A stretch of DNA of 64,000 nt, from positions 4,659-68,658 of the forward strand of contig JAUYKH010000041.1 in the NCBI GenBank assembly GCA_030700065.1, read 5' to 3'. The position numbers were made by a program, and so were the translations under genes. Source of the stretch: a bacterium (lineage in GTDB: Bacteria; Patescibacteriota; Doudnabacteria; UBA920; 2-01-FULL-46-14). The notes under the pieces are model-generated. The model worked only from the letters and a program-made list of their open reading frames with translations, did no database searches and was not told the DNA's origin. Within the stretch, counting starts at the first letter, position 1. Every line of letters begins with the position of its first letter. This document shows, in pieces, positions 13,365-45,626 of this stretch.

Positions 13365-13370
13365 TTATTT

Positions 13371-15800: not shown

Positions 15801-15809
15801 GGAGAAAAC

Positions 15810-16577: not shown

Positions 16578-16595
16578 AAATAATTAGCTAAAAGT

Positions 16596-18427: not shown

Positions 18428-18428
18428 A

Positions 18429-22583: not shown

Positions 22584-22585
22584 GT

Positions 22586-23374: not shown

Positions 23375-23379
23375 TTTTT

Positions 23380-26948: not shown

Positions 26949-26965
26949 CTTTCTAAAAATCGTTT

Positions 26966-27940: not shown

Positions 27941-27951
27941 TTTTAGAAGCC

Positions 27952-30861: not shown

Positions 30862-31973
30862 AAGTCAAAATTTTCGGAGCGGGATCAATTGGAAATCACC
30901 TTACCCAGGCCTCAAGGCGGAAGGGGTGGGATGTCACGGTCGTGGATATTGATCCGGCCGCGCTCAAGCGCATGAAAGAAGAGATTTATCCAAAGCGATA
31001 CGGTAGTTGGGACCCGCAAATCAAACTGATGACCCCCGAAGAGGCACCAAAGGGAGGATTTGACGTCATCATGGTAGGTACGCCGCCGCCGGCCAGACTG
31101 AAAGTCGCCATGGAGGCTTTGGAGGGAAAACCTAGAGTTTTACAGCTTGAAAAGCCCTACTTCGTCCCCATGCTAGATGAAAGCCTGAAACGTGAAAACC
31201 AAGAGTTTATGGAGAAGGCAAAATCTTTGGGCATAAAAGTAGTGGTTGGGTACGAATACGCTCTTGGAGAGAGCGCAAAAAAGGCGTTAGATTTTATTTC
31301 GGATAAGGGTTTTGGAAAAATCCGGGTTTTGGAAGTTGCCGTGCGGGAGGAATGGAGCGGGGCATTGGCTGCCCATCCATGGCTCAAAGGGCCGGCTGAT
31401 ACCTATCTTGGTTTTTGGCAGAAAGGGGGAGGCGCGTTAAGCGAGCATTCGCATGCTATACACTACTGGCAACATTTCGCCAGTCACTTAGGTCTGGGAA
31501 CGATTGATGAAGTTTCTGCATCAATGAGAATGGTAAAAGACGCGTTGTTAGATTACGACGAATTAACATATTTGAACATAAAAACTGACCAGAGTTTTAC
31601 CGGCACGATTGTTCAGGATGTGGTAACCGATCCTCCGTATCTGTCTTTGTTTATTCAAAGAGAGAAGGCCTTTGTTAAATGGCTGCGACGGTCTGTTCCG
31701 GGCAAAGGAAATGTCGAGACAATCACGTATGGGAAAAAAGACGAGAATGGTTGGCTGGTCACGACAGAAGATATCCCCGTCGCGAGACCGGACGACTTTT
31801 ACCCAGAGATAAACCATATTGCTGATCTGCTCGAGGAAAAAGTGAAAATTGAGGATTCCCCGATTCGTTTGGAGATGGGTGCACACGTAACCGCGGTAGT
31901 GACGGCAGCACACGAGTCTCGGCTGAACAATGGAAAATTTATTAAAGTAACAAAATATGCCGGTTATCGATAA
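30858..31973 (+). CDS. NAD(P)-binding oxidoreductase (Gfo/Idh/MocA-like N-terminus)
   Basis: MKVKIFGAGSIGNHLTQASRRKGWDVTVVDID Rossmann fold. Confidence 0.45.
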   Translation: MKVKIFGAGSIGNHLTQASRRKGWDVTVVDIDPAALKRMKEEIYPKRYGSWDPQIKLMTPEEAPKGGFDVIMVGTPPPARLKVAMEALEGKPRVLQLEKPYFVPMLDESLKRENQEFMEKAKSLGIKVVVGYEYALGESAKKALDFISDKGFGKIRVLEVAVREEWSGALAAHPWLKGPADTYLGFWQKGGGALSEHSHAIHYWQHFASHLGLGTIDEVSASMRMVKDALLDYDELTYLNIKTDQSFTGTIVQDVVTDPPYLSLFIQREKAFVKWLRRSVPGKGNVETITYGKKDENGWLVTTEDIPVARPDDFYPEINHIADLLEEKVKIEDSPIRLEMGAHVTAVVTAAHESRLNNGKFIKVTKYAGYR

Positions 31974-32649
31974 AAAAATACTTGCGATCATCCCGGCCCG
32001 CGGCGGATCCAAAGGCTTGCCGGGCAAAAATATAAAATTGTTGGTGGGTAAACCGCTCATCGCTTATTCAATTGAAGCGGCAAAAAAATCAAAGCACGTT
32101 GATCGTGTAATCGTGACCAGCGACGACAAGAATATTTTGGAAACTTCTGCACCATTTGGGGCTGAACTTATCCAAAGACCCGCAGAGCTGGCGCTTGATG
32201 AAACCAAGATGCCTCCAGTAATCCAACATGTTATTGACACATTAAAAACAAAGGATAATTATCGACCGGATATTGTTTTGCTTTTGCAGCCAACGTGTCC
32301 ATTGCGCACGAGCAAGCATATAGATGAGGCCATCGAGCATTTTTCGGCCAATGATTTTGACAGCCTCCTAAGCGTTCTGGTTTTATACAAGCAGCAGTTT
32401 GTGGTCGAGAATGAAAAATACTTGCAGCCGCTTCTGAAGGAAAGGCCAAACCGGCAGGACAGAAAGCCGGTGATATTGGAAAATGGCGTGATTTATTTGA
32501 CCATGATAAATCTGATGGAGCAGGGGACAATAGTGGGTGGAAAGATAGGTTATTATCCGATGCATATCGCTGATTCGCCAAACATTGACGACCAGGAAGA
32601 TTTTTTGTTTGCCGAAAGATTGATAAAAGGATCGCGTGACCATGAATAA
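31957..32649 (+). CDS. neuA: Acylneuraminate cytidylyltransferase (NeuA-like) #2
   Basis: ILAIIPARGGSKGLPGKNIKLLVGKPLIAYSIEAA..LLQPTCPLR. Confidence 0.75.
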   Translation: MPVIDKKILAIIPARGGSKGLPGKNIKLLVGKPLIAYSIEAAKKSKHVDRVIVTSDDKNILETSAPFGAELIQRPAELALDETKMPPVIQHVIDTLKTKDNYRPDIVLLLQPTCPLRTSKHIDEAIEHFSANDFDSLLSVLVLYKQQFVVENEKYLQPLLKERPNRQDRKPVILENGVIYLTMINLMEQGTIVGGKIGYYPMHIADSPNIDDQEDFLFAERLIKGSRDHE

Positions 32650-33730
32650 AGAAATCAAAATTGGACGAGTGGTTATTGGAGAGCAATATCCGTTTGTAGT
32701 CATTCCCGAGGCGGGCGATAATCACCACGGCAGCCTCGCCTCCGCCAAAGAGATTGCCCATGCCGCGCTTGAGGCCGGATCCAAGATTATTAAATTTCAA
32801 CTGCACTTGCCGGACGAGGAGATGGATCGAGAGGGCATGCGTCAAACGTCCTCGGAGATGTTTAAGAAATGGGGCGATTTGTACGGCTTTATTCAGAAAA
32901 ATCAGTTGTCTGTCGAAGATCACTCGGAACTTATCCGTTACTGCGAAAAGATCGGCATCCAGTATTTTTGCACACCTTTCTCGGCGAAGGCGGCACAAAT
33001 ACTAACAGAAATTGGCGGTGATGCCGCGTTCAAAATTGGTTCTGGAGAAACCGAAGATCTGCCAATGATTGAGGAGGTCGCTGCTTTGGGTAAGCCGATG
33101 ATGGTTTCCACTGGAATGAGCACTTATGAGGAGATTGATTTAACAGTCGCTGCTATTAAGCAGAAAAATATCCCGTTTTCGTTGGCGCATTGCATATCGT
33201 CCTATCCACCAAAGTCCCTTTCTGAACTTCACCTGGGAGTCATCAGAGAGCTTGGAGCGCGCTACGATACAGTTGTCGGTTTTTCGGATCATACGCCGCC
33301 CGAAGGGCTGGTAATCGAGGGAGGAAAGCCAATTTCAGAAGAGGCAATTTTGTTCGGCGCGATGGGCGCAGGTGCCAGATATCTAGAGAAACATTTTACT
33401 GTCGATAGAAAAGGAAAAGACGCGGATAGCTGGTTTTCTCATGATCCGCAGACCCTCAAAGATCTTATAAATACTGCCGCCGAACTTGATAAGGCGATGG
33501 ATAATAAGCGGGAGGTGTTTGAAGAGGAAAAAGGCGTCTGGATTTGGGCCAAGCGGAGCCTGGTCGCGGCCGAAGATATTCCGGCCGGAGCGAAGATTAC
33601 CCGAGAAATGCTCAAAAGCAAACGTCCGGGAACAGGAATTAGGTCCAAAGATTATCACTCGATTTTGGGGAAAATTGTTAAACACAACATCGCCAAGGAT
33701 AAAATATTACTGTTAACTGATTTAGAATGA
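32636..33730 (+). CDS. neuB: NeuB-family sialic-acid-type synthase #3
   Basis: FVVIPEAGDNHHGSLASAKEIAHAALEAGSKIIKFQLH..AHCISSYPP..GFSDHTPP plus SAF tail. Confidence 0.8.
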   Translation: MTMNKEIKIGRVVIGEQYPFVVIPEAGDNHHGSLASAKEIAHAALEAGSKIIKFQLHLPDEEMDREGMRQTSSEMFKKWGDLYGFIQKNQLSVEDHSELIRYCEKIGIQYFCTPFSAKAAQILTEIGGDAAFKIGSGETEDLPMIEEVAALGKPMMVSTGMSTYEEIDLTVAAIKQKNIPFSLAHCISSYPPKSLSELHLGVIRELGARYDTVVGFSDHTPPEGLVIEGGKPISEEAILFGAMGAGARYLEKHFTVDRKGKDADSWFSHDPQTLKDLINTAAELDKAMDNKREVFEEEKGVWIWAKRSLVAAEDIPAGAKITREMLKSKRPGTGIRSKDYHSILGKIVKHNIAKDKILLLTDLE

Positions 33731-34881
33731 GAAAAATTTGCGCAATCACGGCAAACCGGGCGGATTTCAGCCGGATGGAAACCGCGCTGCGGGAAATAAA
33801 AAAGCATAAAGATCTCGAGCTGCAGCTGGTCGTCATGGGATCTCACCTTTTGTACGATACCGGCAACACGATCGAAGAGATCAGGCAAAAGGGGTTTGGT
33901 GTTGACCGGACTATTTATATGGAAGTGAGCGGCAGCAATCCTTCGACAATGAGCAAATCAGTGGGGCTCGCGATTATCGAACTCTCCTCGGTCTTGGATA
34001 ATTTAAAACCTGATCTGGTTTTGGTTCCAGTGGATCGTTTTGAGTCCCTCGCCATGGGGGTGGCGGCGTCTCTGATGAATTTGCCTATCGCACACATTCA
34101 GGGCGGCGAGATTACTGGCACGATCGATGAGAGCATTAGGCATGCTCTAACCAAGTTGTCGCATATTCATTTTCCGGCCACTGAACTCTCCCGTCAGCGA
34201 ATTATCCGGATGGGGGAGCCGGAAGACCTGGTGTTCAATGTCGGGTGTCCGGGGACTGATTTATTGCTTGAGGCGCCGGTTTTGAACGCCAAGCAGACGA
34301 TTGAGTTGCTTAACCAGGATCTTGCCAATCCGCTCGATCCCGAGAGACCTTTTATATTGATGGTGCAGCATCCAGTGACAACGGAGTTTGGAAGTGCCAC
34401 TAAAGAGATTACGGAATCAATGGAGGCCATGTCCGAGTTTGAAGAGCAGATCATTATTCTCTGGCCGAATATTGACGCGGGAGCGGATGAATTGTCCAGG
34501 GTCCTGCGAAAATATACAATTTTTGCGAAAAACGGAAAAGGAATGAGGATTTTTAAACATTGGCCGACCGAAACTTTCGCCAATATCATGCGTAATGCGG
34601 TCTGCCAGGTAGGAAATTCCTCGAGCGGGATCAGGGAATCGTGTTATTTCGGCACCCCGGTAGTGAATGTTGGCTCGCGCCAACAGGATCGGGAAAGGGG
34701 GAAAAACGTGATGGATGTAGGGTATGATCGTCGCGAGATCGCCGCGGCTGTCCGCCAGCAAATCAAACACGGGAAGTATAAGATGGAGGCAATATATGGC
34801 GATGGCACAGCCGGGAGACAAATTGCCGATATTTTGGCATCCATAAAAATTCCAAGCGTACAAAAGAGGATCAGATACTAG
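33727..34881 (+). CDS. neuC: UDP-N-acetylglucosamine 2-epimerase (hydrolysing; NeuC-like)
   Basis: MRKICAITANRADFSRMETALREI..LVVMGSHLL..HIQGGEITGTIDESIRHALTKLSHIHF is the Epimerase_2 pattern. Confidence 0.8.
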   Translation: MRKICAITANRADFSRMETALREIKKHKDLELQLVVMGSHLLYDTGNTIEEIRQKGFGVDRTIYMEVSGSNPSTMSKSVGLAIIELSSVLDNLKPDLVLVPVDRFESLAMGVAASLMNLPIAHIQGGEITGTIDESIRHALTKLSHIHFPATELSRQRIIRMGEPEDLVFNVGCPGTDLLLEAPVLNAKQTIELLNQDLANPLDPERPFILMVQHPVTTEFGSATKEITESMEAMSEFEEQIIILWPNIDAGADELSRVLRKYTIFAKNGKGMRIFKHWPTETFANIMRNAVCQVGNSSSGIRESCYFGTPVVNVGSRQQDRERGKNVMDVGYDRREIAAAVRQQIKHGKYKMEAIYGDGTAGRQIADILASIKIPSVQKRIRY

Positions 34882-34883
34882 AT

Positions 34884-35807
34884 ATGTCTAAAAGCAAGGG
34901 TCCGGATTTTTTGATAGTCGGGTTGGAAAGAAGCGGAACAAGCTGGGTTTCGGCCCTGCTGAATAGTCATCCGGAGATTGCCTGCATCCCCCCGATGCCG
35001 TTTCGCAAGGAGTCGGGAGAATTTAGAGAAATCGGGGAGATTCATTTGTTTAATACGCTCGCGAGTCTAGAAGTTGGAACAACAGACAAATTTACACGGC
35101 CGGTCGCCAACTACAAAACGACTGATATCAAAATATTCGCAGATTTTGCTGACCTGGAAGGAAAAATTCCCAAAGAGGAGCTGTATAATACATTTATTGA
35201 GCGGTACAACGAGCTTTGCGAATCTTATCGGAAAGGCAAGAAACTTGTGGGAGAGTCTACGCCGGCCTATGTCTTTCACCTTAATTTTATTGACCGATTT
35301 TATCCCGGGATTAAAAAACTTTGCATCATCCGCGATCCCAAAGACAAAGTCGTCTCCTGGCATTTCAATCTTGTGAGAAAAGGGCGGAAACAGGAAGACG
35401 AAAAAATTTCCGATGAATTTATCAAGGAATATTGCGAGACGAGGATTGCCAAAGAATATCAGGCCTTGCTGGATTACCAGGGGCAGATTCACTGTTTTAC
35501 TTACGAAGCCCTGACACACAACCCCCGCAAGGTTGTATCGGGAGTTTTGCGGCACCTTGAAGTAAATGACGACATTGCGCTTACTGACCAAATGGTCAAA
35601 GAAGCATCGTTTGAAAATTTAACCGCAAAGGACAGCGGAAGGGGTAGACAGCAAGGCGAGCAATCTCTAAAAAGTCATTTCCGCAAAGGCATTATTGGAG
35701 ACTGGAAAACCCATCTAACCAATACCCAGATCCATTATATCGAGGGCGAGACCCTACAACTTCGGAAAGAGGTCTTCGAAAAGTACCGCGTCGATCCAAT
35801 CGAATAA
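34884..35807 (+). CDS. PAPS-dependent sulfotransferase
   Basis: 5'-PSB motif LERSGTSW and 3'-PB motif RDPKDKVVSWHF. Confidence 0.65.
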   Translation: MSKSKGPDFLIVGLERSGTSWVSALLNSHPEIACIPPMPFRKESGEFREIGEIHLFNTLASLEVGTTDKFTRPVANYKTTDIKIFADFADLEGKIPKEELYNTFIERYNELCESYRKGKKLVGESTPAYVFHLNFIDRFYPGIKKLCIIRDPKDKVVSWHFNLVRKGRKQEDEKISDEFIKEYCETRIAKEYQALLDYQGQIHCFTYEALTHNPRKVVSGVLRHLEVNDDIALTDQMVKEASFENLTAKDSGRGRQQGEQSLKSHFRKGIIGDWKTHLTNTQIHYIEGETLQLRKEVFEKYRVDPIE

Positions 35808-35820
35808 TTAACCCGAATTC

Positions 35821-36696
35821 ATGTCGAAATTTTTATTTGAGTTTGAAATGCTCGAGGCTTGTCCGGTTTGCGAAAGCCGGGTGATGGTTCCCAATGGCCG
35901 CATCAGCTGGCTGGAGAACGATTTTTGGTATGTGGTCTGTCCCGGATGCGGGCTCAAATATATGAATCCTCGGCCCACAACGCAGTCTTACCGCGATTTT
36001 TATCGGGATTATTTCTGGCAGCAAAAAATTCGAAATGCCGGTTTCCGCGAAGCTGGCCAGACTTGGCAGGGGAAGCCGCAGGAATGGCACAACGAGGAGC
36101 CGTGGAAACCTGAAGATGGGAGAAAAATTTTTATGGACAAATTCAGGAAGGTAAGAGTAGATGCCATTTCTGGCGTTCTGCAAAAATGTATTAATTTGGG
36201 GAAGGACTCCCTGATTCTTGAGGTGGGATGTGGTTTCCCGGCGACCCTGGAAGCACTGCGCGACAAATACGATGCGCAGGTTTATGCTATTGAGCCGTCG
36301 GAAGATGCAAGGCAGATAATCGGAGAAAAAAATATCGAGCTTCTAGGATCTTACGCCGAAGAGCTCCGGGACTTGGCCGCAGGGGACTTACGGTTTGACG
36401 CGATCATCTTTTCTCATGTTCTTGAAAACGCCACTGATCCCTTGCAGGTTATTCGGTGGGCAAATTCATGCCTTTCCGCCAATGGCGTCATTTATATTCA
36501 AACTCCAAATTTGCTAGTATTTGATCAGATGAATCCTTATCATCCTTTCATTTTCTCCAGAAATTCGCTCCGAGTACTCATAGAGAAAGCCGGTCTTGTT
36601 TACGAACCCGTTTCACAGCCAATAGACAAAATGTTGACCGTAATATGTTCTAAAAAACGACAATCCAATTGGCGTATCAATCCGGATGGAAAATAG
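35821..36696 (+). CDS. Class I SAM-dependent methyltransferase with N-terminal Cys4 zinc-ribbon
   Basis: CPVCESR..CPGCG then LEVGCGFPATLEAL motif I. Same architecture as 12252-13364. Confidence 0.55.
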   Translation: MSKFLFEFEMLEACPVCESRVMVPNGRISWLENDFWYVVCPGCGLKYMNPRPTTQSYRDFYRDYFWQQKIRNAGFREAGQTWQGKPQEWHNEEPWKPEDGRKIFMDKFRKVRVDAISGVLQKCINLGKDSLILEVGCGFPATLEALRDKYDAQVYAIEPSEDARQIIGEKNIELLGSYAEELRDLAAGDLRFDAIIFSHVLENATDPLQVIRWANSCLSANGVIYIQTPNLLVFDQMNPYHPFIFSRNSLRVLIEKAGLVYEPVSQPIDKMLTVICSKKRQSNWRINPDGK

Positions 36697-36817: not shown

Positions 36818-37474
36818 ATGCATAATGCAAGGCAAGTTTTACAAGGTTACTTCGGTCCAAAATATCCCATTGCTGTCGGCGTTTTGACAGCTTTAATTTT
36901 GTCCCCGTTGATTGTGATTTTTATTAGCGCGGCCGTGGCCGTTACCACTGTCAGCACGGACGTCGTAACCGGCGGAAATCTCCAGGCCTCCTCCACCCTT
37001 TTGGTTACTGGTGATGTTTTAACTTATGGCAATAGCACTTTTGGCAATGCCGCCACAGATATCAATCTATTTACCGGTACGCTTCAGGCCACCACAACCG
37101 CTTTGTTTACCGCCGGGATTACGACCTATGGAAATTCAATTTTTGGAGACACCAATGCCGACACAAATACGTTCGCCGGCAACATCACTTTGGAAAATTC
37201 GGAGACACTCGGCAACGCGACGAATAACAATATTTTCTTGGGTGCCAATACCATTTCGCTCGCCACCACGACTGCGACAACCACTGGATCAGTGTGGGTT
37301 TCAGCGAAAGGCGGCATTACCACGACGACCTTGCAGGTTAACGGGAATATTGAGGGCAATGCAGGCGGCGCTACAAGGGGGAGCTGTCTTCAACTTTGGC
37401 AGGAGGATGTGATTTACCGCATCTATGTTGTTGAAGCGAATGCGCTTATGGTTGAGGCCGGAACCTGTCAGTAG
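36818..37474 (+). CDS. Membrane-anchored Thr/Gly/Asn-rich repeat protein (putative surface protein)
   Basis: N-terminal hydrophobic anchor, then periodic T-x-Y-G-N-S-x-F-G-N/D repeats (LTYGNSTFGNAATD, TTYGNSIFGDTNAD). Composition is very high in Thr/Ser/Asn/Gly. Confidence 0.5.
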   Translation: MHNARQVLQGYFGPKYPIAVGVLTALILSPLIVIFISAAVAVTTVSTDVVTGGNLQASSTLLVTGDVLTYGNSTFGNAATDINLFTGTLQATTTALFTAGITTYGNSIFGDTNADTNTFAGNITLENSETLGNATNNNIFLGANTISLATTTATTTGSVWVSAKGGITTTTLQVNGNIEGNAGGATRGSCLQLWQEDVIYRIYVVEANALMVEAGTCQ

Positions 37475-37509: not shown

Positions 37510-38769
37510 ATGCTGAAACAAAAAGTTTTTTTAGGGAAAGTCGCTTTAGCAATTTTGATTGTTTGGGGTGCTTTTTTTTCAAGCACGCCGAATGTCGCGG
37601 CAGTAGAATCAGATGTGCTGTTTGATACAGATACACCGATTGCTCTGACCCTCGAAGGGAGAACCAGGACATTTCTGGTGGGGGACGGCTCGAGGGCGGT
37701 AAGTATTCAGGTTGGCGCCAGCAGTATTACTGTCATAGTGGGAACTGCCGGAGAGGGTGAAGACAGTGATACTTTTACCCTGCAGAACAACGCTTCTACG
37801 CCGGCGATGAATTTCTTGATCAACAGCGCGTATGATCCAGTGACTACTTGCAGTGGGGGTTTTGGTTCAGTAAGCCTATCCAATACGGCCACCACCACCT
37901 ATATTATTGCTCCCCAGCCAGACAATCTTTGCGAGACTGGCGCCAGCGGCTCGAGTTCTGGAGGAGGCGGTGGTGGGGGCGGTGGTGTGACCACTCCGAC
38001 CACCCCGACGGTTCCCGCGGAAACTCCCTCTGTGACGGCTCCAGTTGCCGGAGCTCATCCGAACGGCACTTTGATTTTGGATAACGGTACAATTTACCTC
38101 GTGGTTGAGGGCAAAAAGCGCGGGTTTCGGAACCCCGAAGAGTATTTTTCGCACGGTTATAAATTTGCCCAAGCGGTCGCGGCCAATGATGCCGATCGCA
38201 GCTTGTCGGACAGTGACGAGCCGATTGAAAAGGCTCTTGACGGCACGCTGGCGCTGGATAAGACCGACAACCGGACGATTTATATGATTGCCGGCGGACA
38301 GAAGCGCGGGTTCACCTCTGCCGAGGTTTTTCACGCCTTAGGCTACCAGTTTAACCAGGCCGTGCCGATTGATCTGGGCGATTATCCGGCTGGCGATCCT
38401 ATAACTGGCGAATCCACCACCCATCCCAACGGCGCTCTGCTTTTGGACAAAAATGACGGCCGCACTGTTTGGTGGGTCCTAAACGGTCAGCGCCAAGGAT
38501 TTCAGTCGGCCGAGGTATTCTTCACCTATGGATTCTCGTTTGGCAAAATTGTCCCTGCCACTGATGCGGATATGGCTTTGGCAGAAGGCGCTTTGGTTAA
38601 ATTCCGCGACGGCACCATCGTGGCCGACGGCAGCGATTATTATCTTATTTCCGAAGGGAAAAAACGGAAGTTCGTGAATCTTGAGGCAATGCAAAACTTG
38701 GGCTATCAGATGACGAATGCGATTGCGGCATCGCTTGGCGCTTACAAGGTTGGCGACGATATCAACTAA
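37510..38769 (+). CDS. Secreted protein with Gly8/Thr-Pro linker and four tandem ~55-aa G-x-K-R-G-F repeat domains
   Basis: Signal-like N-terminus, then GGGGGGGGVTTPTTPTVP linker. Four repeats follow: GTLILDNGTIYLVVEGKKRGF.., GTLALDKTDNRTIYMIAGGQKRGF.., GALLLDKNDGRTVWWVLNGQRQGF.., GTIVADGSDYYLISEGKKRKF.. Confidence 0.55.
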   Translation: MLKQKVFLGKVALAILIVWGAFFSSTPNVAAVESDVLFDTDTPIALTLEGRTRTFLVGDGSRAVSIQVGASSITVIVGTAGEGEDSDTFTLQNNASTPAMNFLINSAYDPVTTCSGGFGSVSLSNTATTTYIIAPQPDNLCETGASGSSSGGGGGGGGGVTTPTTPTVPAETPSVTAPVAGAHPNGTLILDNGTIYLVVEGKKRGFRNPEEYFSHGYKFAQAVAANDADRSLSDSDEPIEKALDGTLALDKTDNRTIYMIAGGQKRGFTSAEVFHALGYQFNQAVPIDLGDYPAGDPITGESTTHPNGALLLDKNDGRTVWWVLNGQRQGFQSAEVFFTYGFSFGKIVPATDADMALAEGALVKFRDGTIVADGSDYYLISEGKKRKFVNLEAMQNLGYQMTNAIAASLGAYKVGDDIN

Positions 38770-38796
38770 AATAATTATTTTTTTCGCTATCTAAAA

Positions 38797-38828
38797 TTTT
38801 CCCGCTTATGAGCGGGGAAATTTTATTT
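38797..38828 (+). terminator. Rho-independent terminator
   Basis: TTTTCCCGCT-TATG-AGCGGGGAAA hairpin followed by TTTTATTT. Confidence 0.5.
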
Positions 38829-38836
38829 GATATATA

Positions 38837-41092
38837 ATGAACGAGATGATCACAGCTTTTGAAACAAATATTGGGTACAAATTTCTACGCGTGATTTTAT
38901 ACGCGCTCCTTTTGACGCCTTTATGGATTTGGAGCGGTTTTTTGTTTCCTTTTATTACGACCAAAGCTTTATACTTCCGCCTGTTGGTGGAACTGGCGCT
39001 AATAATTTATATTCCACTCGCCTTGAAATATCCCCAGCTTAGGCCACGCTGGAATTGGCTCACCGGCAGCGTTTGGATTTATATAGGCGCAATTTTTTTT
39101 ACCAGCCTTGTTGGGCTTGATTTCAATCATAGTTTTTGGGGGACAGTCGAGCGCGGTGAAGGCATTATCACGCTGCTTCACTTTGCCGCCTATTTTACGA
39201 TTCTGCCCACGGTTTTTCGGACCACCACCGATTGGTATCGTTATCTATTTTCTGCTGTGCTGGTCACACTGGCCGTGGCCGTCTATGGGCTGGCTCAATT
39301 GCTGAATCTTCCCTTTACCGTTGAAACTGGAGGGGGGACGAGAATTTCCGGCACCATCGGCAACGCCGCTTTTTTTGCCGCTTTTCTTGTTTTTGGCATC
39401 TTTCTGTCGCTTTATTTGCTCAAACTGACCCCGTCGGGCGGCAAACGGTTGTTTTTGAAGTCAATATTCGTTTTCGAGTTAATTATGCTTTTTCAGTCGC
39501 AAACTCGGGGAGCCCTGGTGGGCATAGCAGTGGCTTTTGTTCTATACTTCGCTGTCAATTTTTTCCTTATCCATGGTAAGCGAGCGAGAATTATTCACGC
39601 CAGTCTGTTGGCCCTGCTGATTTTAGGCTCTGTTTTGATCTATACAAATCGAGGTAGCGAATGGGTAAAGGGAAATGCTACTTTGCGCCGCATGGCAACT
39701 ATTTCTTTAAGCGATGTTACCACCCAGTCTCGCCTGGACACCTGGAGCGCGTCCTGGAAAGGGTGGAAAGAGAGATTTTGGGGCGGGTATGGCTACGAGA
39801 ATTACGATATAGCTTTCAACAAACATTTTCCGGCTAGAATTTTCAAGGATCAAGGCAGCCAAATTTGGTTTGACCGGGCGCATAACGTCGTCCTGGATAT
39901 CGGCGTTACTTCAGGAATTTTCGGACTCCTGGCCTATTTGGGGATTTTTGGCGTGGCCGTCGCGGGCCTTTATCGCCTTTTTCGATTAAAGGCGGAAGAA
40001 GTGAAACCCCAGCAGAGCGTAATTTTAGCCCTTCTGCTTCTGGCTTACTTTCTGCAAAATTTATTTCTATTCGATACCCACGCCACTTATCTAATGTTTT
40101 TTGTCGCGCTGGCACACGTCGTATTTTTACAGGAAAAATATTTTTTTGCTGAAGATACGCGAATAATTCCAGCAGACAACCGCCGGTTTGTGGTCGCGGC
40201 CGGGTCTATCTTTGGCTTAGCCATACTTGTCGGAGCATATTTCATCAATCTAAAACCCGCAATGGCGAATATTGCCTCAATCAAGGCCATCACCGCCTCA
40301 AGGACCGGCAATTTCGAGCAGGCGAAAGTGTTATTCGAGCAATCACTTTCTTACGGCACATATATGGACCAGGAGATCAGAGAGAGGCTGGTTGATTATC
40401 TGCAAATAACCATTGGCTCGAACAGATCTCAAGAAGAAAAACAAGAAATTTATCAGTTCGTTTTGCAGGAGCTCAAAAAAAGCATTGAGGAGTCGCCGCA
40501 CGACGCCAAAAATTATCTATATTTGATCACTGTTTTAAACCGTTACTCTTCGCAGGTGCCCGCCAATTATGATCGGGTGATGGCGTTGGGTGAAAAAGCC
40601 CTTGAGCTTTCGCCGACCCGCCCGCAAATTTATTTTGAATTAGGATGGTCGTCATTGGCCCAGCATTATTATGATACGGGACTGGGATATTTCCTTACTG
40701 CGATTGACCTAAATCCCTATCCAAAGGAGTCACATTTGAATTTTATAACCGCTGCAATTATTGCCGGCCGCGAGGATCTGGCCGAACAACAAAAAGAAGT
40801 TTTAACCCAAAAAATCGGATACCCGTTGACTGCTGTTGATTATGATGCAATTGGTAAAGCCTACATTGCAGCGAAAAATTACACAAAAGCCGCCGAGAGC
40901 TACGGCGAAGCTACGGCTCTGGATCCTGCGAATTTTGAATATTTGGTGAGGTTGGCTGCCATTTACGGCGAGCTATGCGAACAAGAAAAAGCCGCTTCCG
41001 CGGTCTACAAGGCCATTGATTTGAACCAATCTTTCATCAAGGAGGGGAGAAATTTCTTGACCCAGGTCGAAAACAAATGCGACAAGCAGTAG
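38837..41092 (+). CDS. O-antigen-ligase/Wzy_C-family polytopic membrane protein with C-terminal TPR repeats (candidate O-oligosaccharyltransferase or ligase)
   Basis: About 10 predicted TM helices, a Wzy_C-like loop (QSQTRGALVGIAVAF), and a C-terminal ~300 aa of TPR-like helical repeats. Confidence 0.6.
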   Translation: MNEMITAFETNIGYKFLRVILYALLLTPLWIWSGFLFPFITTKALYFRLLVELALIIYIPLALKYPQLRPRWNWLTGSVWIYIGAIFFTSLVGLDFNHSFWGTVERGEGIITLLHFAAYFTILPTVFRTTTDWYRYLFSAVLVTLAVAVYGLAQLLNLPFTVETGGGTRISGTIGNAAFFAAFLVFGIFLSLYLLKLTPSGGKRLFLKSIFVFELIMLFQSQTRGALVGIAVAFVLYFAVNFFLIHGKRARIIHASLLALLILGSVLIYTNRGSEWVKGNATLRRMATISLSDVTTQSRLDTWSASWKGWKERFWGGYGYENYDIAFNKHFPARIFKDQGSQIWFDRAHNVVLDIGVTSGIFGLLAYLGIFGVAVAGLYRLFRLKAEEVKPQQSVILALLLLAYFLQNLFLFDTHATYLMFFVALAHVVFLQEKYFFAEDTRIIPADNRRFVVAAGSIFGLAILVGAYFINLKPAMANIASIKAITASRTGNFEQAKVLFEQSLSYGTYMDQEIRERLVDYLQITIGSNRSQEEKQEIYQFVLQELKKSIEESPHDAKNYLYLITVLNRYSSQVPANYDRVMALGEKALELSPTRPQIYFELGWSSLAQHYYDTGLGYFLTAIDLNPYPKESHLNFITAAIIAGREDLAEQQKEVLTQKIGYPLTAVDYDAIGKAYIAAKNYTKAAESYGEATALDPANFEYLVRLAAIYGELCEQEKAASAVYKAIDLNQSFIKEGRNFLTQVENKCDKQ

Positions 41093-41095: not shown

Positions 41096-42472
41096 TCACT
41101 GCCCCTTGCCGGAGAGAATGATGTTGATGGTTTTTAGTATTATGCCGATGTCCAGGGCGAAGGAACGGTTCTTGACGTAAAATAAATCATACTGCAATTT
41201 TTTAAAAGCGTCTTTGGCTGACGCGCCGTACTGGAAATTGATCTGGGCCCAACCGGTGAGACCCGGTTTGACCAAATGCCGCTCGTTGTAGAAGGGGATG
41301 ATTGTAAGCAAATCCTTCACTAATTCCGGCCGCTCGGGTCGAGGTCCCACAAGCGTCATCTCGCCCCGCAGAATATTCCAAAATTGAGGAATTTCATCAA
41401 GCCGCATCTTCCGCAGCATTCGCCCGATTTTTGTTACCCGGGGATCATTATTGGTTGCCCACTGCGGTTTTCCGTCTTTTTCCGCGTCTGCGATCATGCT
41501 CCGAAATTTTATGGCCACAAATCGGCGACTAAGGTGGCCGGTTCGCAGCTGTTTGAAAAAAATCCCCCCCCCATCATTAAATTTGATCAGTAGAACAATC
41601 AGGGGGAACAACGGCAGAGAAGCAACCAGCGCGAGAGACGCAAACAATATGTCAAACAATCTTTTGAAAAATTCATAGACGTCTTTTTCGCTTTCAACCA
41701 GATTTTCCAGAAACCAAATATGGCCGATGGTGGTAACAGGGATTTTGCCGGTTAATTTTTCATAAAAAGCAGGCAAGTCACGGAACTCGAGCCGAAGCGA
41801 GAGGCTTTCGTACAGCTGTTCCACGAATTTTGGAGCGGATCGCGGGTCCAGGGCCGTGACTACTGTACCGATATGGTGTTCCCGCAGAAGTTTTTTTAGA
41901 TCGCCGAAGCCGTTGTAGATGATAATGCCGGGAAAATCATTTTGATCCAGGTAGCCGTCGTGTATTATCGCGGCAATTCGGTAGCCAAGCTGCGGTTTTT
42001 GGTTGATTTCATTGATCAGCTCTTTGGCCTCATCGTTTATCCCCAAAACCAAAACCTTGCGCAGGTGGGTCGGCCGCGAAACAAAACCGTTGTACCAATA
42101 GCGCCACAAGGAGAACAGCACGGTATAAACCGCGATGAAAACAAAAAAGACGGTTTGCGGCTTGATGTCGAAAAGTTTGTCGGTGAGCAGGTAAAAATAG
42201 GCGGTTGCCAAACCATAGTTGATCAGCAGCACCGCGATGATTCGGTTGTAAAAACCAATGTCATTGCGACTCGTTACGATGTCATAAAGCCCGCTGATAT
42301 AAAAAACCAGAAGCCAAACAGCAAACAAGACAGTAAACGGCGAGAGGTTTTGGAGCCAATTGTCTCGACTGGGCAATTCCCAATAGCGGATGAGCAGGGT
42401 CAGCCATAACGCGGAAAACAGCAGCAAGATATCCCCCGCGACGAGCATTATTTTTTTGAACCGATTAGGCAT
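41096..42472 (-). CDS. Initiating phosphoglycosyltransferase (bacterial sugar transferase, WbaP/PssY-like)
   Basis: C-terminal KRLFDILFASLALVASLPLF..RFVAIKFRSM..DEIPQFWNILRGEMTLVGPRPERPE is the Bac_transf signature. ATG 42472 (MPNRFKK..) is chosen, and the ORF track extends in frame to a TTG at 42538. Confidence 0.7.
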   Translation of the reverse strand: MPNRFKKIMLVAGDILLLFSALWLTLLIRYWELPSRDNWLQNLSPFTVLFAVWLLVFYISGLYDIVTSRNDIGFYNRIIAVLLINYGLATAYFYLLTDKLFDIKPQTVFFVFIAVYTVLFSLWRYWYNGFVSRPTHLRKVLVLGINDEAKELINEINQKPQLGYRIAAIIHDGYLDQNDFPGIIIYNGFGDLKKLLREHHIGTVVTALDPRSAPKFVEQLYESLSLRLEFRDLPAFYEKLTGKIPVTTIGHIWFLENLVESEKDVYEFFKRLFDILFASLALVASLPLFPLIVLLIKFNDGGGIFFKQLRTGHLSRRFVAIKFRSMIADAEKDGKPQWATNNDPRVTKIGRMLRKMRLDEIPQFWNILRGEMTLVGPRPERPELVKDLLTIIPFYNERHLVKPGLTGWAQINFQYGASAKDAFKKLQYDLFYVKNRSFALDIGIILKTINIILSGKGQ

Positions 42473-42560
42473 TATGCAGGGGATTATAGCAAAAATCCGG
42501 CATATTGCATAGATTTTGGAATTTGAAAAAAAGTCCAAAAAATGATATAATATTAATAAT

Positions 42561-42652: not shown

Positions 42653-44407
42653 ATGGCGTTGGCATCAACAGATCTGAAAAAAATATTGGTCGACCAAAAA
42701 GTTATTCAAGCGGAGGATTTTGAAAAATTGGAAAAAGAGGCGAAGGATAAGAAACAAACCGTCGCCAATTATTTGGTGTTCCGCAAAATCATCCCCGAGG
42801 ATCGCCTGGCCAAATTGGTGAGTGATTTTTTGGATGTCCCGGCGATTGATCTCACAAGCTCGGAAATTCCCCAAGACGTGCTCAAGGTCATTCCCGAGCC
42901 GATTGCCCGCCGTCATCAGGTCGTGGCTTTCAAGAAGAAAGGCAACGAACTCGATTTGGCGATGACTGACCCGGAGGATTTGCAGACGAGAGAATTCGTG
43001 AAAAAGAAAACCGGATTTGTCATCAAGCCCTTTTTGGCGACCAAAACCAGTATGGATTACGCGTTGTCGCAATACCACGGCAATTTGAAGGCGGAATTTG
43101 AGAATATCCTGACATCCAAAAAAGAAGGCAAGGGAGGCAGCGTCAAGACTGGGGAAACCGAAGGGGCGGATCTGGCAAAAATGGCGGAAGAGATCCCTGT
43201 CGTCAGAGTGGTTGACACACTCTTGGAGTACTCGATTTTTGAGGGGGCGTCGGATATTCATATCGAACCGCAGGAAAAAGAGGTGATGGTCCGTTATCGC
43301 ATTGATGGAATATTACACGACGCAATGACTCTGCCGAAGGTCATTCAACTCGCGGTCGTGGCGAGGATCAAAGTGCTTTCCAATTTGAAAATTGACGAAC
43401 ACCGCCTGCCCCAGGACGGCAGATTCAAACTGCAGACCGATGAGTATAACATTTCGTTTCGCGTCTCAACTATTCCGATCTTCGACGGAGAGAAGGTGGT
43501 GTTGCGGCTCCTGGACGAGGGGGCAAAGGCCCTGACATTCGAAGAACTCGGGTTTGCCCGGACTTCCCTTGAGGTAATCAAAAGGAATTTGGGCCGCCCC
43601 CACGGAATGACTCTCATTACTGGTCCGACCGGCTCTGGAAAATCAACAACCTTGTACACGATATTGACGAAGTTAAACGTCAAAGGTGTCAATATCAGCA
43701 CGATCGAGGACCCGATTGAATATCGTATTCCGTTCATAAACCAAATGCAGGTGAACCCCAAAATCGGACTTACTTTCGCGGTCGGTCTTCGCGCGCTTTT
43801 GCGGCAGGACCCGAATATTATAATGATCGGTGAAATTCGGGATTTAGAGACATCGGAGGAAGCCATCCATGCGGCAATGACCGGGCACATTGTGCTCTCC
43901 ACATTGCATACGAACAATGCGGCCGGTGCCATTCCCCGCCTGCTGGACATGGGGGTGGAACCTTACCTGATCGCTTCCACTCTGAATACCGTCATCGGCC
44001 AGCGTTTGGTCAGGAAGATTTGTGAGCATTGCAAAAAGTCAGTTTTGCTTTCCGAAAAAGAGGCGAAGAGTTTGTCGCAGGATTTTGACCTGGAAAATCT
44101 TTTGGAAGTGATGAAGCGGGAACAGGTTTTGGACAAGAAGCTCAAGCATATTGAAGACGTGGAATTTTTTGAGGGGGAAGGCTGCGAGAAATGCGGCCGC
44201 ACGGGGTATAAAGGCCGGATGGGCATCTATGAGACTTTGGATATTACTGAAAATATCGCGAAATTGATCATGGGCAGGATGACCACCGCTCAAATACAGG
44301 GGCAGGGCGTCAATGAAGGAATGGTGTTGATGTGGCAGGACGGGTTTATCAAGGCTCATACCGGACTGACTACGATTTCCGAAGTTTTAAGAGTCAGCAA
44401 GGAGTAA
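42653..44407 (+). CDS. pilB: Type IV pilus assembly ATPase PilB (GspE family)
   Basis: N-terminal GspE_N domain, Walker A GPTGSGKSTT, Asp/His boxes, and the tetracysteine CEHC..CEKC motif. ATG 42653 is preferred over the upstream TTG. Confidence 0.8.
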   Translation: MALASTDLKKILVDQKVIQAEDFEKLEKEAKDKKQTVANYLVFRKIIPEDRLAKLVSDFLDVPAIDLTSSEIPQDVLKVIPEPIARRHQVVAFKKKGNELDLAMTDPEDLQTREFVKKKTGFVIKPFLATKTSMDYALSQYHGNLKAEFENILTSKKEGKGGSVKTGETEGADLAKMAEEIPVVRVVDTLLEYSIFEGASDIHIEPQEKEVMVRYRIDGILHDAMTLPKVIQLAVVARIKVLSNLKIDEHRLPQDGRFKLQTDEYNISFRVSTIPIFDGEKVVLRLLDEGAKALTFEELGFARTSLEVIKRNLGRPHGMTLITGPTGSGKSTTLYTILTKLNVKGVNISTIEDPIEYRIPFINQMQVNPKIGLTFAVGLRALLRQDPNIIMIGEIRDLETSEEAIHAAMTGHIVLSTLHTNNAAGAIPRLLDMGVEPYLIASTLNTVIGQRLVRKICEHCKKSVLLSEKEAKSLSQDFDLENLLEVMKREQVLDKKLKHIEDVEFFEGEGCEKCGRTGYKGRMGIYETLDITENIAKLIMGRMTTAQIQGQGVNEGMVLMWQDGFIKAHTGLTTISEVLRVSKE

Positions 44408-44411: not shown

Positions 44412-45626
44412 ATTCCAGAATTTACTTACACCGCAAAAGACAGGGATGGGAAAACAGTAACCGATACGATTCAATCGGCTTCACGAGAATTATTGGGCCA
44501 AACTTTGAGAACCCAGGGACTTTTACCGACTTCTATTCGGGAAAAAGGGACTCGCGTGTCCCCCATCAGTTTTTTGAAGAATTTTTTAGGACACGTCTCC
44601 CTGCTGGAAAAATTAACTTTCATAAACAATTTGGCCGTGACAATAAGGGCGGGGTTGCCCGTATCGAAAGCGCTCAATGTATTGACCAAGCAGATGCCGA
44701 ACCATTATTTTCGAAAGATCATCGGGGAGATTGCGCATAATGTGGAGGAAGGCAAGACACTTTCGGAAAGCATGGCTCCTTACAAAAATGTCTTTACTCC
44801 GATAGTGGTGAATATGGTCAAGGTGGGGGAGGAAAGCGGCGAGTTGGATAAAACGCTCGAGTATCTCGGCAAACAGGTGGCCAGGGATTACAACCTCATC
44901 CGGAGGACGAGAAGCGCCTTGATTTATCCCGCGGTAGTTGGAGTTGCGCTTGTTGTCATCGGCTACATTATGTTTGCCTTTGTCTTGCCGAAATTGACCG
45001 CCACTTTTAAGGCGTTTGACACTGATTTACCCTTTTTGACAGTGACCATCATCAAGATAGTGGATATTGTTTCGCATTATTCAATTTTGATTTTGGTAAT
45101 GGCGGTAGGGGCGGTTTTTGCGTTTTTGTACTGGCGCAAAACTTCGAACGGGCGTATTATACTGCACCGCATCGTCTTTGCCATCCCAATCGTTAGGATA
45201 TTGGTCAAGAAAATAAATATGGCGCGTTTTACTATCATCTTCAGCGGCCTGATGCGTTCGGGAATGCCAATCGTGGAAGCCCTTCGCATCACCGCGAATA
45301 CCATGACCAATTTGTACTACCAGAGAGCCTTGTCTGACGTATCCGAAAAAGTGAAGGTCGGGGTGGATCTCGTCGTTGCTTTGGAAAAATACCCGAAACT
45401 ATTCACGCCGATGGTTACCGAGATGATTCAGGTCGGAGAGGAGTCCGGCACTATGGAAAAAGTCCTGGGAGAAGTCGCCAACTTTTATGAAGCGGACATT
45501 GATGATACCATGAAAAATTTATCATCGATTGTTGAGCCGGTTTTGGTCATGGTTATCGGCGCGGTCGTGGGAGTCCTGGCCGTCGGACTTATCTTGCCGA
45601 TTTATAGCATTGGGCAGAACATATGA
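44412..45626 (+). CDS. pilC: Type IV pilus platform protein PilC (GspF family), apparent ATT start
   Basis: Two GspF repeats. The conserved N-terminus IPEFTYTAKDRDGKTVTDTIQSASRELLGQTLRTQGLLP lies upstream of the first ATG/TTG/GTG in frame. AAGGAG (44399-44404) sits 7 nt before ATT 44412. Confidence 0.65.
   Translation: MPEFTYTAKDRDGKTVTDTIQSASRELLGQTLRTQGLLPTSIREKGTRVSPISFLKNFLGHVSLLEKLTFINNLAVTIRAGLPVSKALNVLTKQMPNHYFRKIIGEIAHNVEEGKTLSESMAPYKNVFTPIVVNMVKVGEESGELDKTLEYLGKQVARDYNLIRRTRSALIYPAVVGVALVVIGYIMFAFVLPKLTATFKAFDTDLPFLTVTIIKIVDIVSHYSILILVMAVGAVFAFLYWRKTSNGRIILHRIVFAIPIVRILVKKINMARFTIIFSGLMRSGMPIVEALRITANTMTNLYYQRALSDVSEKVKVGVDLVVALEKYPKLFTPMVTEMIQVGEESGTMEKVLGEVANFYEADIDDTMKNLSSIVEPVLVMVIGAVVGVLAVGLILPIYSIGQNI

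Follow-up and report, generated by a model that had tools for sequence, protein, structure and literature searches.

What does an enzyme that databases call an O-antigen ligase do in a bacterium that should be without LPS? The question is raised by a gene at 38837..41092 (+) of a 64-kb stretch of DNA (hereafter the window), which encodes a membrane protein with a Wzy_C core and a TPR array. The host is a Doudnabacteria-type CPR bacterium, and as such should be ultrasmall and single-membraned and lack LPS. Patescibacteria make up a large share of bacterial diversity, and those that have been cultivated are attached to other microbes, a contact in which pili and surface molecules are the mediators. 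Their protein glycosylation machinery is uncharacterised. In a study of Saccharibacteria pili, O-glycosylation of pilins was only predicted and no enzyme was named (PMC11623550). The Wzy_C-TPR family is the obvious candidate for that enzyme, and a search of open-access papers on O-antigen ligases, TPR proteins or glycosylation in CPR/Patescibacteria returned nothing on it.

Domain architecture, topology and fold

The gene is complete, comprising a single ATG-to-stop ORF of 751 aa, and its product is 99% identical to the NCBI entry 'O-antigen ligase family protein [Candidatus Doudnabacteria]'. Pfam places Wzy_C (PF04932) on aa 211-368 (E = 7.1e-18, 65.3 bits against a cut-off of 31.7), and a Wzy_C match is present in 41/41 aligned relatives. 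Several TPR families exceed their own cut-offs in the C-terminus (e.g. TPR_2, 45.1 bits against 27). The coordinates and the Pfam scan therefore agree with the original prediction of a 751-aa protein built from a Wzy_C core and a C-terminal TPR array. Wzy_C_2 (PF11846), the C-terminal domain of PglL and PglS, has no match in the protein; weak matches of ~27 bits, below the cut-off of 28.5, lie within the TPR region of 4 of the 41 relatives. PglL_A (PF15864), the motif by which proteobacterial PglL is told apart from WaaL, gave no match to the protein at E≤1 and is absent from the 25 Pfam families most often matched by the 41 relatives.

Hydropathy and the AlphaFold model (pLDDT 91.9, pTM 0.89) agree on a 13-helix polytopic core followed by a helical-repeat solenoid. 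The WaaL-fold transmembrane core, with 13 predicted TM helices, spans aa 1-475 (38837..40261, +), and the TPR solenoid aa 476-751 (40262..41089, +). Between TM9 and TM10 a large extracytoplasmic loop (aa 271-350; 39647..39886, +) bears R299 and the motif D346-R347-A348-H349, and forms the putative active site. By hydropathy, a K/R-rich loop (aa 437-448) precedes TM13 (aa 449-472; 40181..40252, +), and in the model a continuous helix (449-489) leads into the TPR array. Since TM13 brings the chain back across the membrane, the TPR domain is predicted by the positive-inside rule to lie outside the cell.

The core shares the three-dimensional fold of the solved WaaL structure (7tpg/7tpj) at a sequence identity of 15-17%. 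When the PDB was searched by sequence with the whole protein and then with its membrane core, WaaL 7tpg was the sole match to the core. No PglL, TfpO or Wzy structure was among the matches of either search, and so structure does not separate a ligase from an oligosaccharyltransferase (OTase). The solved WaaL chain has 403/413 residues, of which the alignment ends at residue 360; its sequence stops about one helix beyond the aligned core and has no counterpart of TM13 or of the 275-aa external TPR domain. WaaL reportedly has 12 TM helices and a cytoplasmic C-terminus. Structural matches to the TPR part include the TPR domains of OGT, SPY, HOP and PilF.

Conserved residues

R224, R299 and H349 do not vary among 41 homologues (33-77% identity), and the loop at aa 271-350 is the most conserved segment of the protein (29/80 columns at ≥90%). 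Residues were mapped onto WaaL from alignments and from Schulz et al. 2013. In the WaaL of Cupriavidus metallidurans, R224 and R299 align to R191 and R265, and H349 falls on the His of the 'EHAHN' motif. In a profile alignment with E. coli WaaL (hhalign, 288 columns), R224 and H349 align to R215 and H338; R299 corresponds to R288 by a shared S/A-R-L motif only, the alignment being gapped at that point. The counterparts in Neisseria meningitidis PglL are R224, R298 and H349 (PMC3643930). The comparison of periplasmic-loop Arg/His residues that had been proposed as a check on the original prediction thus yields a match to both PglL and WaaL. An invariant N408-x4-D413 motif stands in place of the PglL-only residues H400, E404 and P406. 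Within the TPR array, family-wide conservation is strong in the proximal repeats (about aa 500-640), and the distal part (aa 650-751) is variable.

Gene neighbourhood in the window

Upstream lies a glycan-precursor locus of soluble enzymes (190..36696, +; Pfam scans), the presumed source of the transferred glycan. It contains three NeuB homologues, three CMP-sugar synthetase-like genes and aminotransferases, together with methyl-, carbamoyl- and sulfotransferases, a PAPS (activated sulfate donor) synthase fusion and two glycosyltransferase-like genes. Each of its ORFs has at most one predicted TM helix, and neither a flippase nor a second Wzy-like protein is found among them. Across the whole window no flippase was found, Pfam scans detected no Wzz/PCP co-polymerase domain, and no lpx, waa or kds gene is present among the annotated ORFs.

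Two genes for putative surface proteins separate this locus from the Wzy_C-TPR gene. The first, u218 (36818..37474, +), encodes a membrane-anchored, Thr/Asn/Gly-rich repeat protein of 218 aa with one N-terminal TM helix and no Pfam match. The other, u419 (37510..38769, +), encodes a secreted protein of 419 aa that has a signal/anchor helix and likewise no Pfam match; its AlphaFold model (pLDDT 82.5) comprises a beta-sandwich, a disordered Gly/Ser/Thr/Pro linker (aa 145-174) and four ~55-aa repeats (beta3-alpha2). We regard u419 as a candidate acceptor or wall-anchored partner and u218 as a second candidate surface protein. Both had been called putative glycoprotein genes. They are real ORFs with a signal/anchor helix and Thr/Ser/Gly/Pro-rich stretches, but their glycosylation is presumptive. 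A terminator-like hairpin (15-bp stem followed by a T-run; 38792..38825, +) lies between u419 and the Wzy_C-TPR gene.

Downstream, an initiating polyprenyl-phosphate glycosyl-1-phosphate transferase (PGT; Bac_transf) is encoded at 41096..42472 (-). Its mechanical ORF extends to 42538 from a TTG, with the NCBIfam TIGR03025 alignment (388 bits; Pfam Bac_transf, 9e-64) beginning at residue 35 of that longer ORF. The PGT had been described as divergent from the Wzy_C-TPR gene; the two are in fact convergent (tail-to-tail), and the PGT gene is divergent only from pilB. The PilB/GspE-type pilus assembly ATPase occupies 42654..44407 (+), with a likely ATG at 42654 and a mechanical ORF from a TTG at 42623, and matches Pfam T2SSE (1e-124) and MshEN as well as NCBIfam type_IV_pilB (576 bits). 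It is followed by a PilC/GspF platform protein (44493..45626, +; Pfam T2SSF, 1e-57, in two stretches; NCBIfam GspF and PilC). Three minor-pilin-like genes come next, with weak N_methyl, PilV, GspK and PilX_N matches between them. They encode proteins of 127 aa (45623-46006, +; cleavage motif G|FTIIE), 212 aa (46003-46641, +; G|FTLAE) and 449 aa (46646-47995, +; PilX_N/GspK-like), and the same trio follows pilC in syntenic loci.

Neither a major pilin gene nor pilMNO is present in the window. A prepilin-motif search for a major pilin yielded nothing beyond the minor-pilin-like gene of 127 aa and a single false match, internal to an ORF; prepilin-type motifs in the window are confined to the three minor-pilin-like genes, at least 4.5 kb downstream of the Wzy_C-TPR gene. 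Moreover, no major pilin gene adjoins a Wzy_C-TPR gene in the window or in the syntenic pilus operons. Of the pilB-pilC-pilin cluster originally described, pilB, pilC and three minor-pilin-like genes therefore stand, and a major pilin does not.

A promoter-like site (TTGAAA-17-TATAAT with an upstream TG, 11/12 consensus matches; 42523..42551, +) precedes pilB. Because pilB has this site of its own and a convergent PGT gene intervenes, co-transcription of pilB with the Wzy_C-TPR gene was rejected for this genome. The upstream hairpin, the convergent PGT gene and the pilB promoter-like site together argue against co-transcription with the neighbours on either side. In relatives where the gap to pilB is 2-115 bp, co-transcription is plausible.

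Distribution and neighbourhoods across relatives

All 80 genome matches to the family come from Patescibacteria-type MAGs. At 50% identity the family (E≤1e-30) comprises ~2,000 clusters, and on present evidence it seems confined to Patescibacteria. A PGT gene lies head-to-head upstream of the Wzy_C-TPR gene within 2.5 kb in 43/68 loci, in 39 of them within 450 bp, and a Wzx flippase is also present in some loci. The link to pili is narrower: pilB-pilC, minor pilin genes and pilMNO lie directly downstream in 10/73 genome loci, all of the Doudnabacteria-like clade, where they group in clades adjacent to the window protein. Gene context follows the clades of a neighbour-joining tree, a quick reconstruction from BLOSUM distances with no support values that was used for this point only.

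In 19/80 loci a gene with the u419-type repeat module lies on the same strand as the Wzy_C-TPR gene and no more than 1.7 kb from it; the 515 kb of flank at 5-10 kb distance contains no such gene. At one locus (L005) such a gene overlaps the Wzy_C-TPR stop codon by 8 nt. The u419-type proteins carry Pro/Thr/Ser/Gly-rich linkers, and a u218 homologue (42% identical) occupies the same position at another locus (L015). The four-repeat C-terminal module of u419 is found elsewhere in CPR proteins fused to Peptidase_S8, CHAP ('surface antigen'), fn3/Big and CHB_HEX-type domains. It is a novel and portable module, and its fusions are typical of one that anchors proteins to the wall.

Several genomes carry two or more Wzy_C-TPR paralogues. 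In at least 10 assemblies one of two paralogues is linked to PGT/pilus genes and the other to a large surface protein, a pairing that resembles the two-OTase arrangement reported for Acinetobacter (cited in PMC12645811). Some paralogue loci also have a separate membrane-anchored TPR protein of ~240 aa encoded directly upstream. One homologue adjoins ftsW, murD and mraY.

Proposed function

The protein most likely transfers sugars from a lipid carrier to pili or proteins of the cell surface. More specifically, the balance tips slightly towards a protein O-oligosaccharyltransferase (O-OTase) of the WaaL/PglL fold (GT-C). The original prediction of such an enzyme is supported by the host, the fold, the Arg/Arg/His residues, TM13 and the adjacent PGT; it is weakened by the lack of PglL_A, of a major pilin and of a family-wide link to pili. 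Taken one at a time, the acceptor classes within this same slight leaning are less secure than the activity itself: neighbouring or general surface proteins are only a tentative choice, and pilins a somewhat more doubtful one, the two being compatible with each other.

Starting from the observed fold, predicted topology, conserved residues, gene neighbourhoods and taxon, we infer the chemistry of the donor, that the acceptor is a protein, and which proteins would serve, as follows. The adjacent PGT would start the glycan on polyprenyl phosphate at the inner face of the membrane, and the enzymes of the upstream locus would extend it. Judging by gene content, the sugars plausibly include nonulosonic acids, e.g. 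sialic-acid-like sugars, and the glycan may be sulfated, methylated or carbamoylated. A flippase encoded outside the window would then move the lipid-linked glycan to the outer face. There, if the alignment to WaaL and PglL is a guide, R224 and R299 would hold the pyrophosphate and H349 would act as the base. The glycan would be transferred en bloc to hydroxyls of proteins that the TPR solenoid presents on the outside. Proteins or peptides are the usual ligands of TPR domains. Likely acceptors would be u419, with its Gly/Ser/Thr/Pro linker, and u218, both encoded alongside, and in the Doudnabacteria-like clade type IV pilus subunits as well.

Alternative readings

Three other readings have to be weighed against an O-OTase. 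The protein could transfer glycan to a non-protein acceptor, peptidoglycan or a membrane glycolipid, giving a secondary cell-wall glycopolymer that u419-type proteins bind non-covalently, as SLH and CWB2 do in Firmicutes. The partnership with a PGT fits this equally well, and the u419 module behaves as a wall-anchoring module would; given its fusion to varied enzymes, its place beside the Wzy_C-TPR gene could be due to binding of the glycan and not to glycosylation. The strong conservation of the proximal TPR repeats is also easier to reconcile with a constant partner than with diverse protein acceptors, and the homologue beside ftsW, murD and mraY points in the same direction. Moreover, the SLH/CsaB anchoring system is reported to have been lost in CPR (bioRxiv 10.1101/2021.05.31.446380), which makes a replacement plausible. 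We nevertheless hold a wall-polymer ligase to be unlikely, as it leaves the placement ahead of the pilus operon in one clade unexplained and sits poorly with TPR domains as binders of proteins and peptides. WaaL-fold ligases are known to act on the lipid A core and on protein hydroxyls. It is LCP enzymes that attach polymers to peptidoglycan, and we know of no WaaL-fold example. A Wzy-type polymerase, which would join Und-PP-linked repeats into a capsule-like or exopolysaccharide chain with the TPR domain as a chain-length or export scaffold, is less probable again. Pfam Wzy_C does include polymerases, the depositors of 7tpg named it 'polysaccharide polymerase/ligase', the 36-kb glycan locus has no gene for another Wzy-like membrane protein, and some relatives have the PGT, Wzx and Wzy_C trio of the Wzx/Wzy pathway; TPR scaffolds are known in polysaccharide export, going by the reference list of PMC2943079. 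However, the invariant Arg/Arg/His residues are those of ligases and OTases, and the profile that matches E. coli WaaL over 288 columns aligns to the E. coli O16 polymerase WbbH only over 19 columns of the TPR region (hhalign, E = 0.18), WbbH being a single representative of the very diverse Wzy proteins. A polymerase would also leave the tight same-strand pairing with secreted proteins unexplained, and the window has no Wzz/PCP partner for it.

That the protein is a classical WaaL, ligating O-antigen to lipid A core to complete LPS, is very unlikely, even though its database name says as much and the fold and catalytic residues are held in common. The gene lies outside any LPS core locus, the solved WaaL chain has nothing to set against TM13 and the external TPR domain, and several genomes carry more than one paralogue. 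The host lineage also speaks against it, CPR having been placed in a monoderm clade (bioRxiv 10.1101/2021.05.31.446380). For the same reason, the case that had been named as favouring an ordinary ligase, an LPS-bearing organism with this as its sole WaaL homologue, very probably does not apply to this Doudnabacteria-type host. For the Patescibacteria members, whether they are O-OTases or wall ligases, 'O-antigen ligase' is probably a misnomer in the databases.

Implications

The known O-OTase classes have so far all been proteobacterial (PMC12645811, PMC9829042). If the Wzy_C-TPR protein is an O-OTase, these classes would extend to monoderm CPR bacteria, the TPR solenoid would be shown to be an acceptor-recognition device, and new enzymes might become available for bioconjugate engineering. 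Were it a wall glycan ligase instead, it would represent a new route to wall glycopolymers. A more ambitious proposal, possible but on balance doubtful, is that Wzy_C-TPR proteins form a fifth, TPR-guided class of O-OTase that carries out general protein O-glycosylation across monoderm Patescibacteria, with pilus-operon-linked and surface-protein-linked paralogues. In the present genome such an enzyme would give pili and wall-anchored surface proteins a coat of sulfated, nonulosonic-acid-containing glycans at the host-cell interface.

Comparison with known systems

With WaaL (C. metallidurans 7TPG/7TPJ; E. coli) the protein has the Arg/Arg/His residues in common, but CPR presumably lack the lipid A-core acceptor. 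By analogy only, it recalls OGT and SPY, and alike TMTC1-4 and other GT-C + TPR O-glycosyltransferases, in which the glycosyltransferase carries a TPR solenoid on the acceptor side of the membrane. The catalytic folds differ, and the donors of TMTC1-4, OGT and SPY are Dol-P-Man or nucleotide sugars as opposed to a polyprenyl-PP-oligosaccharide.

As with TfpO/PilO and TfpM, the gene for a Wzy_C enzyme lies within a type IV pilus cluster. The pilin glycan that TfpO transfers in Pseudomonas aeruginosa 1244 contains a pseudaminic-acid derivative, which is paralleled by the nonulosonic-acid locus beside the Wzy_C-TPR gene. TfpO and TfpM are proteins of 425-460 aa with no C-terminal domain, encoded immediately beside their cognate major pilin gene (PMC9829042), whereas the present protein has 751 aa and its pilus neighbours are pilB, pilC and minor pilins, with no adjoining major pilin.

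PglL of Neisseria and PglS of Acinetobacter are closer in architecture. Both share the WaaL-like fold, and R224/R298/H349 of PglL correspond to R224/R299/H349 here. PglS has 13 TM helices and a periplasmic C-terminal domain (PMC12800693), as is predicted for the present protein, and a role in recognising internal sequons has been put forward for that domain (PMC9829042); PglL has been described with a C-terminal TPR motif (PMC2943079). In contrast to both, no PglL_A was detected, a long canonical TPR solenoid makes up the C-terminal domain, and the host is a monoderm CPR bacterium and not a proteobacterium.

The S-layer systems of monoderm bacteria offer a further comparison, made here by description. 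WsfB of Paenibacillus alvei is reported to combine Wzy_C with a C-terminal TPR; for WsaB of Geobacillus stearothermophilus the TPR protein is a separate one, WsaA, whose gene lies just upstream. Both are labelled 'predicted' S-layer O-OTases (PMC2943079). The TPR array of the CPR proteins is much longer (~275 aa), the gene is linked to pilus assembly genes, and the candidate acceptors are not known S-layer proteins. In common with WsfB and WsaB, a polytopic Wzy_C enzyme of an LPS-free monoderm has its TPR domain in cis or alongside, and its gene accompanies a glycan cluster with a Bac_transf-type PGT and nearby genes for surface proteins, here u218 and u419.

Architecture and distribution of the Wzy_C-TPR protein

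One uninterrupted reading frame, opening with ATG, spans 38837-41092 (+) and encodes 751 aa. Pfam places Wzy_C (PF04932) at aa 211-368 (E 7e-18; 65 bits, cut-off 31.7), and the C-terminal third matches a set of TPR families. Hydropathy analysis gave ~13 hydrophobic helices, ending by residue 472. An AlphaFold2 model, built from an alignment of 41 homologues, was confident (pLDDT 91.9, pTM 0.89) and contains 13 membrane helices, the last of which (aa 449-489) continues straight into approximately nine helical hairpins. Given the agreement between the ORF, the Pfam matches, hydropathy and the model, the original prediction of a Wzy_C core with a C-terminal TPR array is correct, both domains having been matched in the HMM search that it proposed.

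The best database match is 99% identical and annotated 'O-antigen ligase family protein [Candidatus Doudnabacteria bacterium]', and the next 119 matches listed share the Wzy_C+TPR architecture at roughly 720-820 aa. A search that used only the membrane core matched 2,017 cluster representatives (50% identity) at E<=1e-30. The majority of the 150 best-matching ones are 700-850 aa long, and hence most have a C-terminal extension too. Screening one genome per species returned 80 loci, all in Patescibacteria-type MAGs: Doudna-, Kuenen-, Buchanan-, Falkow-, Komeili- and Uhrbacteria, together with some third-party MAGs under implausible labels; at least 10 assemblies contained two Wzy_C-TPR paralogues. 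Several third-party MAG records with the CPR-type gene whose titles name Gammaproteobacteria, Saccharibacteria, Nitrospirae or Thermoproteales (loci L017, L020, L026, L027, L030, L036, L039, L048, L076, L080 and others) are suggested by gene content and similarity to be taxonomic mislabels or mis-binned contigs.

Putative active site and predicted topology

R224, R299, D346, R347, H349 and D413 are invariant in the 41 homologues (33-77% identity), and the most conserved segment is the external loop at aa 271-350. R191 and R265 of Cupriavidus metallidurans WaaL align with R224 and R299, and the His of its 'EHAHN' motif with H349, whilst profile alignment pairs R215 and H338 of E. coli K-12 WaaL with R224 and H349. 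Schulz et al. described R224/R298/H349 of N. meningitidis PglL as equivalent to R215/R288/H338 of E. coli (PMC3643930). The Arg/His comparison proposed originally thus returned an invariant R224/R299/H349 set with counterparts in both WaaL and PglL. Judged from these alignments, the conserved features are those of a putative ligase or oligosaccharyltransferase-type active site, common to WaaL and O-oligosaccharyltransferases (O-OTases).

The short K/R-rich loops all lie on one side of the membrane; the large conserved loop is on the other, which is also its placement in WaaL. The 13th helix, with a K/R-rich loop before it, is predicted to put the TPR solenoid outside the cell. Structure comparison revealed a resemblance of the TPR part to the peptide-binding TPR domains of OGT, SPY, HOP, PilF and PilW. 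The solenoid is conserved in its proximal repeats and variable in its distal ones, and L591, S592, P593, R595, Y599 and G603 are among the conserved TPR residues.

Gene neighbourhood

A Bac_transf phosphoglycosyltransferase (PGT) gene (41096-42472, or to 42538 from TTG, -; TIGR03025, 388 bits) adjoins the Wzy_C-TPR gene. The original prediction described it as divergent; the adjacency stands, whilst the PGT is in fact convergent with the Wzy_C-TPR gene and divergent from pilB. Beyond it lie pilB and pilC, as predicted, and the predicted pilins are three minor-pilin-like genes (127, 212 and 449 aa), no major pilin gene being found in the window. Neither are there pilMNO genes within the window, where the pilus operon is either cut short or split. 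In Doudnabacteria relatives pilM, pilN and pilO come after the three pilin-like genes; in this window their place is taken by an 842-aa protein (47967-50495, -) with Mur-ligase middle and C-terminal domains at aa 526-814 and an unassigned N-terminal ~500 aa bearing a PP-loop-like 'GGGKDS' motif. A terminator-like hairpin with a 15-bp stem (38792-38825) separates the Wzy_C-TPR gene from u419, and ahead of pilB lies a near-consensus promoter-like site (42523-42551).

Upstream, u218 (36818-37474, +) and u419 (37510-38769, +) encode proteins that are secreted or anchored and match no Pfam family. u218 is membrane-anchored and rich in Thr, Asn and Gly; its short repeats ('YGNSTFGNA' and 'YGNSIFGDT', for example) are degenerate, and another Doudnabacteria genome has a homologue (42% identity) in the equivalent place (L015:6537-7322). 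In the u419 model a signal/anchor helix is followed by a beta-sandwich, then by a disordered Gly/Ser/Thr/Pro linker, and finally by four beta3-alpha2 repeats (aa 183-419); the repeat module matched no Pfam family and no solved structure. In other CPR proteins it is fused to S8 protease, CHAP, fn3/Big and CHB_HEX-type domains, and in this it behaves like a module that anchors proteins at the surface.

Three homologues (45-51% identity) share the order PGT (-), Wzy_C-TPR, pilB, pilC, three minor-pilin-like genes, pilM, pilN, pilO. Of the 80 loci, 73 have enough downstream sequence, and in 10 of these pilB lies directly 3' of the Wzy_C-TPR gene: L008-L015, L031 and L045 (L010 being added to a count of 9). 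On the upstream side, sequence sufficed in 68 loci; 43 of them have a head-to-head PGT within 2.5 kb, and 39 have it within 450 bp. More distant homologues keep the PGT, sometimes with Wzx, and are followed by secreted proteins rather than pilus genes. An HMM of the u419 repeat located a repeat-bearing protein near the Wzy_C-TPR gene in 19/80 loci, never more than 1.7 kb away and always on its strand, and none in 515 kb of flank 5-10 kb away. Repeat-bearing proteins encoded upstream are 1,200-1,300 aa long, often with a small TM+TPR protein before the Wzy_C-TPR gene. Those downstream are 580-720 aa, with a TIG domain in both of the two checked; one such gene overlaps the Wzy_C-TPR stop codon by 8 nt. 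A quick neighbour-joining tree indicates that context tracks clades (PGT with pilB; PGT only; PGT with a downstream repeat protein; a large upstream repeat protein without PGT). A ~240-aa membrane-anchored TPR protein (L061:4594-5325, L062:9181-9900, L078:9220-9936) was observed between a large repeat-bearing surface protein and a paralogous Wzy_C-TPR gene.

The upstream glycan locus

Soluble sugar-modifying enzymes are encoded, all on the same strand, in a 36-kb block upstream of u218/u419 (190-36696, +), a nonulosonic-acid-type locus that is very large for a small-genome CPR bacterium. It includes NeuB homologues (11125-12177, 13371-15800 and 32636-33730, +), CTP_transf_3 (CMP-sugar synthetase-like) genes (6012-6770, 17741-18427 and 31957-32649, +), a carbamoyltransferase (20826-22583, +), three DegT-type aminotransferase-like genes, a NeuC-like 2-epimerase and methyltransferases; the NeuB at 13371-15800 has an N-terminal fusion to an FAD amine-oxidase/UDP-galactopyranose-mutase-like domain. 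A 916-aa PAPS synthase fusion (23380-26130, +) combines a pyruvate-kinase barrel, itself an unusual partner, with PUA_2, ATP sulfurylase and APS kinase. A CysQ-like inositol-monophosphatase-family gene (26127-26948, +) follows, with a sulfotransferase further downstream (34884-35807, +), and together these genes suggest that the glycan may be sulfated. No ORF in the block has more than one predicted TM helix, and therefore it encodes neither a flippase nor a second Wzy-like protein. No Wzx flippase, ABC transporter or Wzz-like protein was found near the glycan genes (190-36696 and 41096-42538); in relatives such as L004, L005 and L006 a Polysacc_synt flippase adjoins the PGT. The host's flippase must be encoded elsewhere in the genome.

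Proposed function and known systems

The best-supported model, which we somewhat favour, is a protein O-OTase. The adjacent PGT would start a glycan on a polyprenyl-PP carrier, the Wzy_C-TPR enzyme would use the polyprenyl-PP-linked glycan, and the outward TPR solenoid would present acceptor proteins, candidates being the neighbouring surface proteins or pilus subunits, to the Arg/Arg/His site. The proposed O-OTase role is partly supported, by the WaaL/PglL-type site and the PGT context; the protein acceptor is inferred and the pilus link is limited to one clade. Since the u419 module behaves as a surface anchor, its adjacency has two readings: u419-type proteins may be O-glycosylated in their Pro/Thr/Ser-rich linkers, or may bind a wall polymer attached by the enzyme.

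The leading rival is a ligase acting on a non-protein wall or lipid acceptor, which we regard as unlikely. A Wzy-type polymerase appears less probable still; the one Wzy sequence compared, E. coli O16 WbbH, gave no match to the profile of the protein. As for a classical WaaL, to which the catalytic residues align, CPR bacteria have been placed within a monoderm clade (bioRxiv 10.1101/2021.05.31.446380) and therefore a lipid A-core acceptor is not expected, making this role highly improbable.

The enzyme is widespread in a poorly understood radiation; its proposed function can be tested, and the glycan predicted for it is unusual. We found no papers on the CPR family in the open-access literature, and a study of Saccharibacteria pili only predicted pilin glycosylation (PMC11623550). 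Amongst known O-OTases, the PglL class as now defined was rejected: PglL_A was detected neither in the protein nor among the 25 most-matched Pfam families of its 41 relatives. Wzy_C_2 matched 4/41 relatives, at scores below threshold. The TfpO/TfpM class was rejected because the protein differs in size and has no major pilin gene beside it. PglS is described as having 13 TM helices and a periplasmic C-terminal domain (PMC12800693), features also predicted for the present protein; in PglS this domain is the proposed recogniser of internal sequons (PMC9829042). The closest analogues, compared by description rather than sequence, come from monoderm Bacillales, in which two S-layer O-OTases have been predicted: WsfB, with Wzy_C and TPR in cis, and WsaB, whose TPR protein WsaA is encoded upstream (PMC2943079). 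The separate ~240-aa TPR protein gene beside paralogous Wzy_C-TPR genes resembles this Geobacillus wsaA-wsaB pair.
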